From Thermoplasmata archaeon (GTDB lineage Archaea > Thermoplasmatota > Thermoplasmata > RBG-16-68-12 > JAFNFQ01): DNA of 64,000 bases. Shown here one piece after another: positions 1-6,705 of the stretch. The notes beneath the pieces were generated by a model. The model did not search any database and was not told the origin of the DNA. It saw nothing but the letters and a program-made list of their open reading frames with translations. Both the position numbers and the translations under genes were made by a program. The DNA lies in NCBI GenBank assembly GCA_041489255.1, contig JBGPQV010000009.1:1-64000 (forward strand). Reading direction: 5' to 3'. Within the stretch, counting starts at the first letter, position 1. Every line of letters starts with the position of its first letter.

Positions 1-9
1 AAGCGGCGC

Positions 10-420
10 ATTGTCCCGCCGCCCGGGACAATTGGGACCGGCTCTCGGACAACCGGAATCGAACGAGGGACAGGAATCGGGGATGCCGCGACAGCACGGC
101 AGGGCGCGGGACAACCGGGACGATGTCGGGGACAATTGCCCTATGCATTCGGACAACGGGGACGCATACCGGGGCAATTGGGACGTGTCCGGGGACAACC
201 GCCCCCAATCCGGGGACAACGGGGACCGTCTCTGGGACAACCGCTCCATATGCGCGGGCACGGGGATCGACCCTCGGATAATCGGGATGGGTCCCGGGAC
301 AATTGGGACCGATACCGGGACAATTGAGAAGGCTACGGGGGCAATCGGCCCCAAGTCGCGGGCAATTGCCCCGGATACGGTTCCGATTGGGGAGAATCGG
401 GTCCCGTATGGAGTGGACTT
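10..420. repeat. Degenerate 21-bp-period tandem array A (GGACAA/GGGCAA core)
   Basis: Core at 26,47,68,89,109,130,151,172,193,214,235,256,276,297,318,339,360 (steps of 21, two steps of 20); perfect 9-bp inverted repeat ATTGTCCCG (10-18)/CGGGACAAT (24-32) at the left end. Confidence 0.85.
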
Positions 421-489
421 GGTCCTGATCCGATAAAGACCACTTCGCCCTGGCTACATATCGACATGGTATCTTCCACGCCAAGTTTC

Positions 490-1000
490 ATTTCGAATCG
501 ATTCCGTCCACGGCTGCCCTCTCGCCACGGAATACCGCACTCGTGTCGGCACCATGTGAACTCACCTGCGTTCCACCGTCACTGACCCTCTCTACCCTTG
601 AAACACATCCTCCACCATCCGAATCGATGTCGTCCACGCGTGCGCGGGACTGCTCTCCATGTGAATCGAATCGGTCCACGCCGGAACTGACTTGTTCCCC
701 ATTGGAGTTGGCCTGTTTCGAGGCTGAATTGCAGTTCTCGACGTTGGAAGGCTGTGTGCTACAGTCGGGAACAGGTCGATTCATGTGTAAACGAGGTTGC
801 TCCAGATGTGGATGAGACGGGTCTCGGTGGAGAAACGGTCGATTCAGGCGTTCGAGCATGGATGAGAGAGTAGAGCAGATCGATTCAGGCGTAGACCGCA
901 TTGCTCCAACATGTCGGGGCACCACGGTCCATTGGGGTAAGTCCCACGCGAACGTAGACCCGGAAAGCGCGAGGGCGACCGACCTCGATGAGCGAGTGGC
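490..1000. repeat. Degenerate 21-bp-period array B with two inverted arms
   Basis: GAATCGA-like core at 495,558,600,621,663,684,705,726; reverse-complement TCGATTC-like core at 776,797,839,859,880,901,985; polarity flips near 755. Confidence 0.7.
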
Positions 1001-1182
1001 GCACCATGACGCGCACCAATCATTATGTTTTGTTCGGCAGAAGATGAGGCGGATCCTGATAAACGAATGAGGATAGCCGCCACAGATTCTTGATTCCCTC
1101 GCCCGAGAACAAGGTGGACAAAGTGATGCAGTGTCACGTAACCGCAAAACCTACTTATCGCCGCCAGGTCTACTCTCGCCTC

Positions 1183-2436
1183 GTGAGAGTCCACGTCGAG
1201 GCATACGGCTGCACCCTGAACAAGGGCGAGGCCAGGATGATGGCCGAGACCCTCCGCGAGGGCGGGCACGCCATAGTCTCTGACGCAAACTCAGCCGATG
1301 CGAACCTCCTCGTGACCTGCACCGTGATCGACGCCACGGAGAGGCGAATGATCTCTCGGATGAAGGCCCTGGCGGGAACCGGCAAACCTCTCATCGTCTC
1401 CGGCTGCATGGCCACCGCACAGCCCGCCATCGTGAGTGAAGTCGCTCCACAGGCGGAACTTGTCCCGCCAGGGGATTTTTCCCGCCTATCCGAAATCTTT
1501 GGCGGGAAACGAATCGGATGGCGGGAGGAAATCACTTCGATTGAACCGCCAGACTCCAGCGTCGAGGCGATAGTCCCCATCGCGCAGGGCTGCGTCGGGC
1601 GGTGCACCTACTGCATCACGAAGCTCGCGCGCGGCGGTCTGAGGAGCCGTCAGAAAGAGGACATCATCCGGCGGGTGGAGCGCCACCTCTCTGCGGGCTG
1701 CAAGGAGATATGGCTCACCGCGCAGGACTCGACCGCCTACGGGCGGGACATCGGCCTGACCCTCGCCGGCTTGATCGATTCTGTTGCGGGAGTCGAGGGG
1801 GATTTCCGCATCCGCGTCGGCATGGCGAGCCCGCAGACCTGTCTCCCGATCTTCAACGAACTCGTCAAGGCCTACTCCTCCCCCAAGGTCTACAAGTTCC
1901 TGCACCTGCCCGTGCAGAGCGGGGACGACGAGATACTGGAGGCGATGGGGCGGGACTACACCATCGACGACTTCAAGCGGATCGTTGCGGGATTCCGCGA
2001 GGCTTTCTCCGACATCACGCTCTCCACCGACATCATAGTCGGATTCCCCGGAGAGACCGAGAAGCATTTCGAGGCGTCCATGAACCTCATCAAGGAAGTC
2101 AAGCCTGGCAAAGTCAACGTGACCAGGTTCTCCTCGCGCCCGGGCACGAAAGCCGAGACGATGGCGGGTAAGGTCGCCGGCTGGCGCGCGAAGGAATGGT
2201 CTCGCAAGATGACCGCCATGCGCTTCCAGATCGCCCGCCAGATCAACAAGGCCTACGAGGGCAGGGTGCTCGACGCGATGACGACGGAGAGAGGGAAGAA
2301 CAAGACGACTCTCGCGAGGACTCTGAACTACAAGCAACTGGTCATCAAGAGCGAACTGCCCCTGGGCCGCATGATTCGAGCGAAGGTGGTCGAAGGCCGG
2401 GATGTCGACCTCATCGCCGAGGTCGTCGAGACTTGA
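1183..2436 (+). CDS. mtaB: MiaB-like tRNA methylthiotransferase (archaeal e-MtaB/CDKAL1 type)
   Basis: UPF0004 N-terminus (EAYGCTLN, TCTV, SGCM), radical SAM CVGRCTYC, HLPVQSG, DIIVGFPGETE, C-terminal TRAM; GTG start at 1183 chosen from the domain start and an upstream CTTAT box. Confidence 0.85.
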   Translation: MRVHVEAYGCTLNKGEARMMAETLREGGHAIVSDANSADANLLVTCTVIDATERRMISRMKALAGTGKPLIVSGCMATAQPAIVSEVAPQAELVPPGDFSRLSEIFGGKRIGWREEITSIEPPDSSVEAIVPIAQGCVGRCTYCITKLARGGLRSRQKEDIIRRVERHLSAGCKEIWLTAQDSTAYGRDIGLTLAGLIDSVAGVEGDFRIRVGMASPQTCLPIFNELVKAYSSPKVYKFLHLPVQSGDDEILEAMGRDYTIDDFKRIVAGFREAFSDITLSTDIIVGFPGETEKHFEASMNLIKEVKPGKVNVTRFSSRPGTKAETMAGKVAGWRAKEWSRKMTAMRFQIARQINKAYEGRVLDAMTTERGKNKTTLARTLNYKQLVIKSELPLGRMIRAKVVEGRDVDLIAEVVET

Positions 2437-2861
2437 GCGTCGGAAGAGGTGAACGCACTCTTTCCCGCCAAGATACATCCGTTGGAAATCACTAACACCT
2501 ACCACCGCCATACTCAATGACGGAGGGATGTCAGATCCCCTTCAAGGGAAAGGCAAAAAGGATCTCGCAACGAACTCCGGCGGCACACGACCCCGAGCGC
2601 CTTCGAATATCTCGCGCTCCGCCAGCCGCGCCGAAGCGCCGCATGCACCCACCACTAGCACCCGCGGGCGCGATTCACCTCCCGCACGCACGGTGCCTCC
2701 ACCCCTCCTCAATGCATGCCGAGCGCGACGACGCAGAGCTGGCATAGAGCCCCCCTCGCACCTCCACCGGGACAGCGCGAAGGGTCACGTCGGAGTCGCG
2801 CGGCGGGACACCGGGCTTTCCTGACATCCCTTCTTATTTTTTTATCCAGCAAGTGAGGCAA

Positions 2862-2875
2862 GCTGTTTATATGCC
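2862..2875 (+). promoter_or_regulatory. TATA box of the tRNA-Ser gene
   Basis: TTTATATG about 30 nt upstream of the tRNA 5' end. Confidence 0.6.
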
Positions 2876-2904
2876 GTTGCCGTGATACTCGCGCGGCGGC
2901 AGAT

Positions 2905-3027
2905 GCCGAGGTCGTCTAGTCCGGTAGGGCGCCAGCTTGGAGAGCTGGTGGCGGGAAACCGCCTCGGGAGTTCAAAAGGACTCCAGCTCTTGTGACGGCA
3001 TGGGTCCTGGAATTCTCCCCCTCGGCG
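2905..3027 (+). tRNA. tRNA-Ser(GGA) with a 37-nt intron in the T-loop
   Basis: Acceptor GCCGAGG/CCTCGGC, discriminator G, anticodon stem CCAGC/GCTGG with loop TTGGAGA, long variable arm GGCGG-GAAA-CCGCC, T-stem GGGAG/CTCCC; removing 2977-3013 restores T-loop TTCAAAT. Confidence 0.92.
2977..3013 (+). other. Non-canonical tRNA intron (position 59/60) with bulge-helix-bulge motif
   Basis: GGGAG-TTCA-AA|A-GGAC...GTCC-TGGA-AT|T-CTCCC: 4-bp central helix TTCA/TGGA flanked by two 3-nt bulges and outer helices. Confidence 0.85.
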
Positions 3028-3115
3028 CTTGGCCGCCGTCCTTTTTCCGGGGAGACAGCGTCGGGCGACAATGAAACTTATTTCAACTTCTAACCGGTTG
3101 CCTCGGTCGAGACGC

Positions 3116-4543
3116 ATGGCCACGAGGTTACTCTTCGTCGAGCCGCCAAAGGAATACTGGTTCGTGATGGGGGAGTACCTCCCGCCGCCGACGGGGCTCC
3201 TCGCCCTTGCGGCATACGTCGAGAGGGAGCTGTCGGGCACCGAGATCGGGGTCGTCGACTGTCAGGCGGAGGGCAAGGGCTGGCCGGAGCTGGAGAAGAG
3301 CATCGAGTCGTTCTCTCCTTCCATTGTCGCCACCTCGGGCTTCACGTGCAACGCTTACGTGTGCGCGAAGGTCGCCGAGCTTGCGAAGAAGGTGGACGAG
3401 AGGATCGTCACAATCGTCGGCGGGCAGCACTTCTCAGCGATCCCCGAGGAATCCCTGAGGGACTTCCCTGAGATAGACTACATCGTCCGCGGCGAGGGCG
3501 AGCAGACCCTGGTCGAATTGATCAGGGCCTTAGAGCAGGCGAAAGGAGTCGCCGACGTCAGGGGCCTCTCGTTCAAGAACAACGGCGGCATCGTCCACAC
3601 GCCCCCCCGCCCCCTGATCGAGGACCTCGACAGCCTGCCCTTCCCGGCCTACCATCTCCTGGGGAAGAACATCGGGAAGTATCACTTCACGATGATGGCG
3701 GGCAAGAACACCAGCTACATGATCCTGGAGGGCTCGCGCGGCTGCAGCTTCAAGTGTTCCTTCTGCACTCAGTGGCGGCACTGGGGCGGGACGTGGCGGA
3801 CGAAGTCCGCGAAGCGCATCGCGGACGAGATGGAGCACCTGCACAACGATTTCGGCGGGCAGTTCCTCTGGCTCACCGACGACAACTTCGACTACGAGAA
3901 GAGGGGGAAGGCGCTTTGGCTGGAGCTCAAGGACAGGAAGTTCAGCAAGGATATCGTCTGGTTCTTCCAAGCGAGGATGGACGACATCGCCAGGCACCCG
4001 GACCTCGTGGCGAAGATGCACGAGGTAGGCAACAACTGGATACTCGTGGGCGTCGAGAGCGACTCGCCTGAGCGATTGAAGGAGTTCAGGAAAGGAATAC
4101 AGAAGAGCCCTGCGGCCCAGGCGGTGAAGATTTTGAACGACAACGACATCTTCAGCCAGTCCATGCTCATCATCGGTTCGAGGAAGGACACCGAGGAATC
4201 GATCGAGCAGCTGAGGCGCTTCACTCTCGGCCTCGACACGAACTTCGCCATCTACACGGTCCTCACACCCTTCCCGGGCACCGACATCTACCAGGAGGCC
4301 GCGCAGAACGGCTGGCTCGAAGACAGGAATTTCGCGCACTACGACATGTCCCACGCGATCATGCCGACCGAGACCATGTCGAGGATGGACGTGCAGGAGG
4401 CGCTATACTACTGCTACAAAGACTTCTATGGGTCCGTCACGAGGGGGCTGCGCGGGCTGTTCGCGAAGAACATGGTGAAAAGGAGGGCCTACCGCCACAT
4501 GGCCAAGAAAGGCGTCCTCCGCAGCCTGAGGAATCTGATTTGA
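3116..4543 (+). CDS. Cobalamin-binding (class B) radical SAM protein
   Basis: PPTGLLALAAY, IVGGQH, RGEGE B12-binding domain; SRGCSFKCSFC; DDNF; GVES; TPFPGT. Confidence 0.85.
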   Translation: MATRLLFVEPPKEYWFVMGEYLPPPTGLLALAAYVERELSGTEIGVVDCQAEGKGWPELEKSIESFSPSIVATSGFTCNAYVCAKVAELAKKVDERIVTIVGGQHFSAIPEESLRDFPEIDYIVRGEGEQTLVELIRALEQAKGVADVRGLSFKNNGGIVHTPPRPLIEDLDSLPFPAYHLLGKNIGKYHFTMMAGKNTSYMILEGSRGCSFKCSFCTQWRHWGGTWRTKSAKRIADEMEHLHNDFGGQFLWLTDDNFDYEKRGKALWLELKDRKFSKDIVWFFQARMDDIARHPDLVAKMHEVGNNWILVGVESDSPERLKEFRKGIQKSPAAQAVKILNDNDIFSQSMLIIGSRKDTEESIEQLRRFTLGLDTNFAIYTVLTPFPGTDIYQEAAQNGWLEDRNFAHYDMSHAIMPTETMSRMDVQEALYYCYKDFYGSVTRGLRGLFAKNMVKRRAYRHMAKKGVLRSLRNLI

Positions 4544-5250
4544 GCGAGAAGGATGGCGCGGGGGAGATGCTGATCCTCTCCCTGGCGGGAGCGGTCATAG
4601 TGCTGACGCTTGCATGGCTTGGCGCATCTGTCCATGGCGGTGTGCAGCTCACCGACAGGCTGATCATCGGAGTGCCGCTGCTCGCGAGCTTCCTGCTCGG
4701 CATGTCGATGGCGGTGAAACCCGGGTGGATGAGGAGACTGCGCAGGGACGCGGTTCACTCGCCAAACGTCAGCCCGCCACAATCTTCGGATCGAGTTCGC
4801 CATGGCCATCATCCCGACTGTGAGCATTTCAGACCGCACACTGTAAGAGTTGGCGGTAAGGTTCTCTGCGCGGGATGCACTGGGCTGGCATTGGGTTCGG
4901 TCGTTTCGATTGCGATGGTGATCCTCTACGTTTCTCTGCAAATATCCGTGACACTCGGCGTTTCAATTAGCCTTGTAGTTTCTGGTATTTCATTGGTTTG
5001 GGTATCCTTGGCCAGTAGCGAATTGATCCAGGCACGAGGAAGCGGCCGCTTCTACAGCAATAGTCTGATGCCCGTCGGTTTTTTCCTCGTGGCGATGGGT
5101 CTGCTCGAAACGACCGGGAACGCTGCCTACGGATTGGCGGGAGTCCTGATTTCATTCCTTTGGCTCGATACAAGGATCAGACTGTCCCGCCGCCGCCACA
5201 TCCGGATTTGCAGCAGCTGCGGTGAGACCTGCAAGTCCTATTTGGCCTGA
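4540..5250 (+). CDS. Multi-pass membrane protein with Cys/His metal-binding motifs
   Basis: About 6 hydrophobic segments; HGHHPDCEHF, LCAGC and C-terminal CSSCGETC; start overlaps upstream stop (TTGA). Confidence 0.6.
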   Translation: MSEKDGAGEMLILSLAGAVIVLTLAWLGASVHGGVQLTDRLIIGVPLLASFLLGMSMAVKPGWMRRLRRDAVHSPNVSPPQSSDRVRHGHHPDCEHFRPHTVRVGGKVLCAGCTGLALGSVVSIAMVILYVSLQISVTLGVSISLVVSGISLVWVSLASSELIQARGSGRFYSNSLMPVGFFLVAMGLLETTGNAAYGLAGVLISFLWLDTRIRLSRRRHIRICSSCGETCKSYLA

Positions 5251-5573
5251 CCCTGCTTCCTCAGCATGCCGACGCCCAGGGCAATGACGACTATCCCGAT
5301 GACGATCGGGAAGATCCACCACAGCTGGAAGTTCGCGAGCTCTGGCGGAAGCCCCTGTATGTTCCTCAACCCGAACTCGAAGATGATCCAAAGCCCGATG
5401 AGGATGACGATTATCGCCCAGAACCACGAGCCCTTGTGGGATGTGCCCGAGCAGCCCTCGTCGCACTGGTCCTTCCTCTGCTCCCTTACCCCGACTCCGA
5501 GCGGGGCGCCGCAGCCGTTGCAGAACCTCGCGTCGTCCTCGTTCTTCTTGCCGCATTTGGCGCAGTAAGTCAT
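5238..5573 (-). CDS. Zinc-ribbon membrane protein
   Basis: YCAKCG...FCNGCG zinc ribbon followed by two TM helices. Confidence 0.75.
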   Translation of the reverse strand: MTYCAKCGKKNEDDARFCNGCGAPLGVGVREQRKDQCDEGCSGTSHKGSWFWAIIVILIGLWIIFEFGLRNIQGLPPELANFQLWWIFPIVIGIVVIALGVGMLRKQGQAK

Positions 5574-5652
5574 GCCTTACACCGAGTGCGAATCTGGACT
5601 CGTGTTAATAATGCTTTCCCGCAAGGAAGGACTCGGTCTCACATTCCACGTC

Positions 5653-6705
5653 TCAGGCCTGCTGGCCCCCGCCCCTCGACCTCAGCCTGGCCTTCAGCGC
5701 CTCTATCGAGACGACCGGATAGGGGTCCACCTTGCGCAGGACTGCAAGGTATATGCTCGCCAGGTCGCCGAGCAGGAGAGTCCCCAGCATCCTCGACAGC
5801 AGGTTGTCCCCCTCGCTCTGCACCTCTATCGGCTTCACCCTCTTCCCGATGATCGCCCTGGTCGCATCGAGCCTGTTCCTTAACTCCTCAGTCTCGTCGC
5901 GGTCCCTCAGGAATATCGGCAGGAACCGCCCCGCCACCTGGCTCCCGCCCCATCCCTCGATCTCGTTGTGGTCAGCCTCGGGGAAGGACGAAGCCCAGGC
6001 GAGGATCTTCGCGTTCTCGTTGAACTCCGTCTGCCACCGCCTCGCGACAGGGGCGAAGGCCATAGAACCGTAGATGATCGGCGTCTTGCCGTAGACCTTG
6101 AGCGCGATTGACTTGGCCCTGTTCACCTTCGTGCTCTTGTCGGGGTTGAGCACCTTCCTCTCCTCCTCGAGGTGCGCCGCCGCTTTCTTGATCTCCTTGT
6201 CGACGTTGTCCACGATGACGCTGCGGCACAGCCCCGCGATCGTACCGAACAGGTAACCGAAGGCGCCGCGCGGCGGGTATCCCTGTGGCACCCCAATCCT
6301 CTCGGCGCGATTCTCCATGCAGAAGCTCGCGAGCTCCCCGCCGCTGCTGACCCCTATGAGCTTGCACCCGATGCCGAGCGCCTGACTCGCGGCGCTGAGA
6401 GTCTCCTCTGTGTTGCCCGAGTAGCTCACCGCGATGACGACGTCGCCCTCGCTCGCATACGCAGGCAGCCGGTAGTCCCTGACGACCTGTATGTCGGTCG
6501 TGCGCCTATCCATCGTCCAGGCGGCGAAGACATCCGCGGCGATGGCCGAGCCGCCCATCCCGACGACGAATATCTTACTCACGTCCGAGGGCAGACTGAA
6601 TGCACTCCCCTGGTCGAGGCCGAAGACCATCTGCTCGGGCAGCGACGATAAGATGCCAAGCAAGTCCCTCTTGTCTATCCTCGAGACCTCTCCGGGGGCT
6701 AGCAT
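5653..6705 (-). CDS. Bifunctional phosphoglucose/phosphomannose isomerase
   Basis: GMGGSAI, SYSGNTEET, SSGG, PPRGA, EFNENAK, PEADHNEIEGW. Confidence 0.9.
   Translation of the reverse strand: MLAPGEVSRIDKRDLLGILSSLPEQMVFGLDQGSAFSLPSDVSKIFVVGMGGSAIAADVFAAWTMDRRTTDIQVVRDYRLPAYASEGDVVIAVSYSGNTEETLSAASQALGIGCKLIGVSSGGELASFCMENRAERIGVPQGYPPRGAFGYLFGTIAGLCRSVIVDNVDKEIKKAAAHLEEERKVLNPDKSTKVNRAKSIALKVYGKTPIIYGSMAFAPVARRWQTEFNENAKILAWASSFPEADHNEIEGWGGSQVAGRFLPIFLRDRDETEELRNRLDATRAIIGKRVKPIEVQSEGDNLLSRMLGTLLLGDLASIYLAVLRKVDPYPVVSIEALKARLRSRGGGQQA

Follow-up and report, generated by a model that had tools for sequence, protein, structure and literature searches.

On F, the gene encoding the sopC-binding protein has sopC on its 3' side. 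Plasmid iterons (R6K, RK2, F, P1) are units of ~20 bp placed two helical turns apart in direct and inverted orientation, and orphan clusters of them occur on the replicon. The CsrB/RsmZ sponge RNAs are non-coding elements of ~350-450 nt that carry roughly 20 copies of a short motif.

In the available part of the source, F sopC is described as 12 repeats of 43 bp, each a 16-bp inverted repeat with the dyad TGGGACCATGGTCCCA, taken by one SopB dimer (PMC2910045). The accessible text of a second report presents StbA of R388 as a PadR-like HTH protein that binds ten 9-bp stbS repeats along a single DNA face, in an 11-bp cycle, without a plasmid NTPase partner, and AspA of pNOB8 as a PadR-like protein that forms a protein-DNA superhelix (bioRxiv 10.1101/2022.04.29.490116). 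For dispersed prokaryote satellites, the portion available of Subirana & Messeguer 2019 gives transposed families of long repeats in Leptospira interrogans and Methanocella conradii only (PMC6749651).

The DNA analysed here, termed the window, is a stretch of 64,000 nucleotides comprising the first 64 kb of contig C9 in an archaeal assembly of 2.74 Mb, 41 contigs and 59% G+C (genome G000; G001 denotes a congener, and other C numbers are contigs). The array at the start of the window belongs, as an orphan, to an undescribed gene-plus-array system; no description of such a module was found in the literature searched.

As presented in that source, sopC resembles the array in having tandem units that each hold a short dyad and a period of whole turns (43 bp there; 21 bp, with a partial 42-bp alternation, here). 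The GGGAC half-site is also the same, which may be coincidence. The array differs from sopC in that no gene for a ParB/SopB-like protein or a SopA-type NTPase lies beside any module, and in its degenerate repeats, its fixed landmarks and its many chromosomal copies with different cores, some of them orphans.

With StbA and AspA, as far as the accessible text describes them, the system shares a small PadR-like gene adjoining a phased array of short repeats, a proposed cooperative coating of one face and the lack of a dedicated NTPase. The PadR-like gene is present here in 7/14 modules, however (of the 13 examined 6 are without it, and the fourteenth is a C7 fragment), and its Pfam scores are sub-threshold. 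The constant partner is instead all-helical and unrelated, the array is located 3' of the genes and not in a promoter, and the spacing is 21 bp and not the 11 bp of that description.

Iterons are matched in the ~20-bp units, the two-turn spacing, the mixture of direct and inverted sites and the orphan clusters. They are not matched in the genes, since no Rep-like gene is present, nor in number, with 17-20 units here compared with 3-9. There is also no clear AT-rich unwinding element, landmark B being AT-rich over ~10 bp, and about two dozen arrays occur on 2.7 Mb. The CsrB/RsmZ RNAs differ in that the array has no homology to them, no Rfam match and no CsrA-like protein. Like the satellites of Subirana & Messeguer, the arrays are non-coding tandem repeats at several sites of an archaeal genome; the available portion of that paper mentions no partner gene, whereas the units here are degenerate, helix-phased and linked to a protein.

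Of the properties of plasmid partition centromeres, helix-phased tandem repeats (putative sites) were found; no ParB HTH, RHH ParR or TubR fold and no ParA, ParM or TubZ NTPase gene was adjacent. NTPase-less systems such as StbA exist, so a missing NTPase does not exclude centromere function. Of the properties of iteron origins, no adjacent Rep initiator was found, and the only AT-rich element is a short landmark. A CRISPR or guide-RNA array, defined by near-identical repeats, unique spacers of at least 25 nt and turnover of units between strains, was rejected: the cores are degenerate, only 7-9 nt of a unit vary, and between lineages the units correspond position by position as orthologues.

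Structure of the array

The features of the window are the following.

1-24, + strand: end of the leader and inverted 'cap' half-site ATTGTCCCG (10-18); the leader runs ~65 nt further left in C1, C11 and G001:C33.
25-379, + strand: 17 phased units, consensus GGGACAA-YY-G-GGAC-GGAyyCg.
25, 46, 67, 88, 108, 129, 150, 171, 192, 213, 234, 254, 275, 296, 317, 338, 359, + strand: unit starts.
46-107, + strand: landmark A, irregular units (GGAATCGAAC ... GGATGCC ... ACAGCAC), the last being the first 20-nt unit (88-107).
234-274, + strand: landmark B, the later of the two 20-nt units together with the unit beside it, with CTCCATATGCGC in the window copy.
380-415, + strand: terminal motif TTCCGATTGGG-N-GTCCCGTATGGAGTGG, the array end in every lineage.
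497-924, + strand: second orphan array, TCCAC-type and weakly 21-periodic; it comes directly after the first, with TCCAC/TCTAC-type units over 420-1022.

Segmentation by PWM and dynamic programming gave the 17 units with core GGGACAA at spacings of 21,21,21,20,21,21,21,21,21,21,20,21,21,21,21,21; exactly two units, 88-107 and 234-253, are 20 nt long. The regular expression GG[AG][ACT]AA placed cores at 26, 47, 109, 130, 151, 172, 193, 214, 235, 276, 297, 318, 339 and 360, and the units at 67, 88 and 254 are degenerate. A preliminary description of this DNA had reported 17 cores at 21-nt spacing, which holds with the two 20-nt units as the exceptions, and a perfect 9-bp inverted repeat at 10-32, which is present as ATTGTCCCG/CGGGACAAT (10-18/24-32, 9-nt arms, 5 nt apart).

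Autocorrelation, proposed in the same description as a check, supported the periodicity: identity at lag 21 over 25-379 was 0.506, compared with 0.278 +/- 0.024 (maximum 0.359) in 2000 shuffles. The pattern GGRCAA-N15-GGRCAA occurred 10 times in the window, always inside 26-365, against an expectation of 0.02, and 0/100 shuffles reached 10. Tandem Repeats Finder, run on window 1-5000, gave no report at the array because the units are too degenerate. The array was present in contigs of three DNA runs (X1, X2, X6) and so has read support beyond the single assembly; the best holders may be the source samples.

A length of 21 bp is two turns of B-DNA. Within the units, a second pentamer lies 10 nt past the first and is either direct (GGGAC) or inverted (GYCCC), a pairing that produces 14-bp dyads, for example GGGGCAATTGCCCC. 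Over the middle block the two kinds of unit take turns, one having its second half-site direct (GGGAC) and the next inverted (GYCCC), which gives a partial super-period of 42 bp. The period and the half-site grammar fit B-DNA, with a step of 21 nt and 20-nt exceptions only.

The landmarks recur outside the window. Landmark A has the same ordinal place in every lineage of the array and in a further array family with the core GTGTGGAC. Landmark B, an AT-richer stretch, reads GAACATTCT.GC.ATATAC in C35, C7, C15 and the GTGTGGAC family. Across lineages the terminal motif has the form ..GATTGGG..GTYCYGTATGGAGTGG, and in the GTGTGGAC family it is found facing the 3' end of a helical-protein gene. 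The 9-nt inverted repeat amounts to the cap half-site, CAWTTGYCC, which is conserved before unit 1 in all lineages.

Copies in the genome and its relatives

A PWM chain scan detected eight GGGAC-core arrays in G000: C9 (the window), C16, C35, C7, C15:30760-31177 and three that form a more palindromic GGGAC subfamily (C2:253403-253708, C36:7846-8088, C4:34039-34344). Their chain scores were 69-234, whereas a single contig, C1 (388 kb), gave at most 18.5 when shuffled; the matrix was trained on C9, C35 and C7. Four lineages (C9/C16/G001:C33; C35; C7/G001:C34; C15) align end to end at about 70% identity and have the leader, landmark A, landmark B and the terminal motif in common. The scaffold of the window array likewise aligns end to end with the gene-linked array C15:30740-31215 and with the metagenome locus L210.

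By BLAST, the GGGACAA family was seen in G000 and the one congener G001, that is, in 2/41 genomes of the order; a pattern search for GGGACAA gave 2/79 genomes of the order, and its reversed-pattern control 0/79. The preliminary description had suggested that the genome and its relatives be scanned for 21-periodic motifs; such scans gave the related arrays in G000 and G001, and the genes beside them were recorded. A wide contig scan for four GGRCAA cores 21 nt apart returned at least 120 stretches, nearly all of those listed being single matches in unrelated bacteria.

Autocorrelation at lag 21 (background 0.29 +/- 0.04) marked 35 regions in G000, a minority of them inside long ORFs. The non-coding regions have different cores, for example CCAGA..TCTGG, ACATGTTGCGG, CGCTG..CAGCG, CCTCCACATGTGG and GTGTGGAC. 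The following are example lag-21 regions.

C1:190458-191024
C2:22275-22706
C3:40624-41060
C15:44591-44980
C1:379820-380295

Several array families with different dyad cores are unusual for a genome of 2.7 Mb.

The second array of the window (497-924) is 76% identical to C17:58311-58738, which lies directly 3' of the helical-protein gene C17:57683-58078. Window 1-1022 therefore consists of two stranded arrays in tandem. This block is 91% identical to C16:1-1042. In the congener (G001:C4:68491-69239) the second array alone precedes a miaB-like gene, so that the window block seems to have been copied recently, and recombination through the second array may have been the route.

The first gene past the arrays, window 1090-2436 (+), encodes a MiaB-like radical-SAM methylthiotransferase (UPF0004, Radical_SAM and a weak TRAM match) and is an ordinary neighbour. 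At window 2905-2969 (+) there is a weak tRNA-like Rfam match (24.5 bits, gathering score 29, E 0.097).

Linkage to a helical-protein gene

ORFs within 2.5 kb of 22 arrays were clustered. Two families, one of helical and one of winged-helix (wHTH) proteins, were the only recurrent neighbours, and no NTPase or initiator gene recurred beside the modules. Two genes of the C15 module are used below.

C15:31554-31934: helical-protein gene, with a hairpin and then a T-run after it.
C15:32164-32658: PadR-like winged-helix gene, upstream of C15:31554-31934.

A profile search for the helical family (~125 aa) gave 20 genome hits, and G000 has about 14 paralogs. Lag-21 identity of at least 0.45 was found within 900 nt 3' of the gene in 16/20 hits and on the 5' side in 2/20, both of the latter being gene fragments on the far side of those same arrays; 2.3% of 5000 random 900-nt segments reached this value. 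The family occurs in 6/401 genomes of the class: both of this genus, 3/3 of another and 1/29 of a third. Foreign loci with 1000 nt of downstream sequence had their best lag at 20-21 or 41-43 in 12/15 cases, and a metagenome relative of 36% identity also has a lag-21 array (0.54).

In the C15 copy the terminal motif lies ~340 nt beyond the 3' end of the helical-protein gene, which it faces. The whole gene-array arrangement is kept on the L210 metagenome contig, whose protein is 87% identical to that of C15. Beside the C9, C16, C35 and C7 arrays, a sensitive six-frame HMM search found no helical-protein gene or remnant (best E 0.26). With no helical gene within about 1 kb, the window copy is an orphan.

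Paralogs differ in the core of their arrays, and each clade has its own. At the sister paralog C9:70558-70935, the leader, landmarks and terminal motif of the array are those of the window type and the core is GTGTGGAC, which means that the scaffold was inherited and the core swapped. Orthologues in the two species keep the core, as with ACATGTT (G000:C2, G001:C86) and CCATGGTGA (C3, G001:C52). A PadR/MarR-like winged-helix gene stands ahead of the helical gene in half of the loci counted above, C15 included; Pfam scores of these genes for PadR/MarR were sub-threshold (E 1e-4 to 1e-3).

Properties of the helical protein

The protein gave chance-level matches alone in Pfam and NCBIfam, with no family assigned, and a Foldseek search of the PDB returned no fold match at E<=0.001. 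It has 119 database homologues, none functionally annotated apart from a few automatic labels; the few source names read 'hypothetical protein' or are of that automatic kind, for instance TolA-binding protein, and one homologue is named 'Methanobacteriota archaeon'. The nearest Atlas clusters are from Acidobacteriota.

The AlphaFold2 monomer (pLDDT 82) has helices at 5-21, 23-28, 33-89 and 95-107, and the best-conserved segment, AKNFRRIRS, is in the last helix. The homodimer model scored 0.77, compared with 0.01 for the best control; this mark was reached by 20/30 solved homodimers and 1/23 single chains. Between runs at least 78% of contacts agreed, with pLDDT (partner) of at least 82. The modelled dimer is antiparallel, long-helix residues 62-58, 69-51 and 76-44 being paired.

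A proposed DNA docking track

The array is best explained as a phased, non-coding DNA docking track for a cognate dimeric protein, comparable to a centromere or a set of iterons (probability roughly 0.55). Four features favour this reading: a grammar that follows helical turns, the presence of dyads, cores specific to each clade, and a symmetric dimer. The same-face array of protein-binding sites proposed in the preliminary description accordingly stands as the best reading, the support being indirect: gene linkage of the sister arrays, paralog-specific cores and dyad half-sites. Against it, the helical protein is without a recognised DNA-binding fold (Pfam and PDB fold searches), and classical centromeres have near-identical repeats whereas these units are degenerate. 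Further points against it, detailed elsewhere in this text, are the core conservation, which hardly exceeds that of the spacers, the fast divergence of the units between C15 and L210 beside a well-kept leader, the RNA-library contigs and the folding of the + strand, and the lack of a recurrent NTPase or initiator gene.

The array would offer ~17-20 sites, two helical turns apart, to one sequence-specific protein. We infer that the helical protein binds DNA. The likeliest binder would be the ~125-aa all-helical product of C15:31554-31934, possibly together with the PadR-like winged-helix protein of C15:32164-32658. This gene pair has its own array beyond its 3' end, and the window, C16, C35 and C7 copies would be read in trans. 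In the model the protein is a rod-like antiparallel dimer, whose 57-residue helix would by arithmetic be ~85 A long, with the basic helix AKNFRRIRS near each end. Such a dimer could bridge neighbouring 21-bp units (~71 A) and might polymerise along one face of the DNA. Candidate roles are a centromere- or iteron-like handle for a cassette, a local silencer or insulator, and a chromosome-organising site.

If the protein reads the arrays, its family would be an undescribed one that binds DNA (or RNA) sequence-specifically and is easily re-targeted, and the arrays would be a natural counterpart of the operator arrays used for tagging loci. About two dozen phased arrays, tied to an unannotated helical family, are present on one small archaeal chromosome, and a scaffold is common to families with different cores. 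In these genomes the arrays account for several large 'gene-free' islands and for contig breaks.

More speculatively, the arrays may be orthogonal 'addresses', each read by its own rod-dimer paralog that sets the 21-bp pitch, with gene-linked and orphan arrays of the same core tied in trans. They would then represent a new sequence-addressed chromosome scaffold, or an NTPase-less device for pairing or segregation, common to archaea and bacteria. We hold this wider proposal to be rather doubtful.

Transcription and RNA structure

The array could instead be transcribed from the conserved leader, the functional product being an RNA of ~20 GGGACAA sites and small GGGRC-AAYU-GYCCC hairpins that binds or titrates the helical protein, as a CsrB-type sponge or an RNP scaffold. 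We consider this a possible reading, though probably not the correct one. Contigs from one RNA library span window 52-303 and 493-814; in metatranscriptome run X24 contigs lie on 52-303 (depth 11) and 493-651 (depth 11.6), with the neighbouring gene at 2-6. The run has no contig on 304-492 or 815-1540, a gap that carries no weight as evidence. These depths are doubled because the locus is in two copies, the library contigs give no strand or ends, and carry-over of DNA is possible.

The cores are all in one orientation between a defined leader and a terminal motif, as would suit a transcript. The leader is also the best-conserved part. Between C15 and L210 its 112 nt (C15:30640-30751) differ at 3/112 positions, far below the units (64/415, which diverge as fast as the neighbouring spacer at 33/249) and third codon positions of the gene (15/127). 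The C15 leader might act as a promoter, as the 5' domain of an RNA or as a site of nucleation.

On folding, the + strand had an MFE z of -3.1, with 1/100 shuffles as good, and the - strand a z of -1.8. A hairpin is impossible in most units (the 'D' units), however, and the covariation term of RNAalifold was -2.46 of -78.41 kcal/mol. No Rfam match on the array was obtained at E<=1 (window 1-6000 and six related loci). Moreover, a half-site spacing of 10-11 nt in either orientation makes sense on duplex DNA and not on RNA, a point against the RNA reading.

Divergence between copies

A further alternative takes the array for a dispersed satellite, selfish or neutral, that is spread by recombination, kept periodic by duplication or conversion of units and functionless at the window site. 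The 91% identity of the window block with C16 and its apparent recent copying, given that the congener has the second array only before the miaB-like gene, are in keeping with this, as are differences between copies by whole-unit indels of 20-21 nt. Divergence at the C7 orphan points the other way. The C7 array, syntenic in both species, differs from its orthologue G001:C34 at 16/461 positions, compared with 38/366 in adjacent non-coding DNA (p=9.5e-5), about 3x less, and with 30/310 at codon position 3 in the adjoining ABC ATPase gene (p=5e-4). The order of the units and the landmarks, which a drifting satellite would lose, also persist across lineages at about 70% identity. We regard the satellite explanation as unlikely.

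Core and spacer differences between close orthologues were counted in five comparisons: 5/136 vs 22/219 (p=0.04), 6/143 vs 25/231 (p=0.03), 6/152 vs 10/247 (p=1), 2/136 vs 8/219 (p=0.33) and 20/158 vs 45/255 (p=0.21). The cores are at most weakly better kept than the spacers.

Downstream of the C7 array, C7:40654-41193 (-) is a real gene of 179 aa with no Pfam or NCBIfam family; its divergence from G001 by codon position is 2.8%, 2.2% and 34.6%.

Coding status

A gene for a heptad-repeat protein, either live and read with frameshifts or recently decayed, would account for the open frames. The frame 2-436 in C9 is open through the array and crosses GQ, DN and GT/TI heptads, and in C35 one frame is open throughout (215 aa, three heptad registers). 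The passage of the ORF through three heptad frames, noted in the preliminary description, was reproduced and coincides with the two 20-nt units. The frame-breaking 20-nt units are, however, at the same ordinal places in all copies, and the C7 array uses other frames than C9 and C35. C9, C16 and G001:C33 differ by 20-nt indels, and close copies also by 21-nt indels. Substitutions by position mod 3 showed no codon phase in three comparisons (9/9/9, 12/12/7, 4/6/6), lag-3 identity in the window array was 0.19, and the array-spanning ORF of C35 had no protein match among 5.8 billion clusters (118-377 aa).

The window array is non-coding DNA, and the earlier view that protein is unlikely to be what is conserved is upheld by the 20-nt indels, the 9/9/9 substitutions and the missing protein match. 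A heptad gene is very improbable. The preliminary description had named two findings that together would make the array a decayed coiled-coil gene: no mirrored TTGTCC arm upstream, and intact in-frame orthologues of a heptad protein. The mirrored arm is indeed missing, but no intact in-frame orthologue was found either. The decayed-gene reading was rejected and does not replace the fold-back reading, which also fell.

Left flank of the window

C9 and C16 begin with the same 128 nt, and C1 and C11 begin with the reverse complement of these 128 nt. Such an overlap is what a junction in the assembly graph leaves at a two-copy repeat; contigs break at the window start because the window block is a two-copy repeat. 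Past the overlap, C1 and C11 share the leader of ~65 nt and then become unique. A 6645-nt contig of DNA run X6 reaches 5.5 kb left of window position 1.

The preliminary description had placed an inversion centre at the window start, with the array continuing in opposite orientation to the left. This was not borne out: the left flank is a unique leader and a gene end, no TTGTCC arm was found left of the contig start in the C1 and C11 flanks, and the congener copy G001:C33 has the same leader with no mirrored arm. The reading of a large inverted (fold-back) structure with its centre at window 10-32, in which the array would form one arm, is almost certainly wrong and was rejected, since its one support is the perfect 9-nt inverted repeat, whereas none of the known left-flank sequences (C1, C11, G001:C33, the leftward extension in run X6) shows an opposite arm and the complete internal copies C35, C7 and C15 are also without one.

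Beyond the leader, the unique sequence in C1 is an intact gene end of PKD type. A degenerate look-alike of this gene end lies upstream of the leader at C11:230-360 (reverse strand) and at G001:C33:2900-3050.
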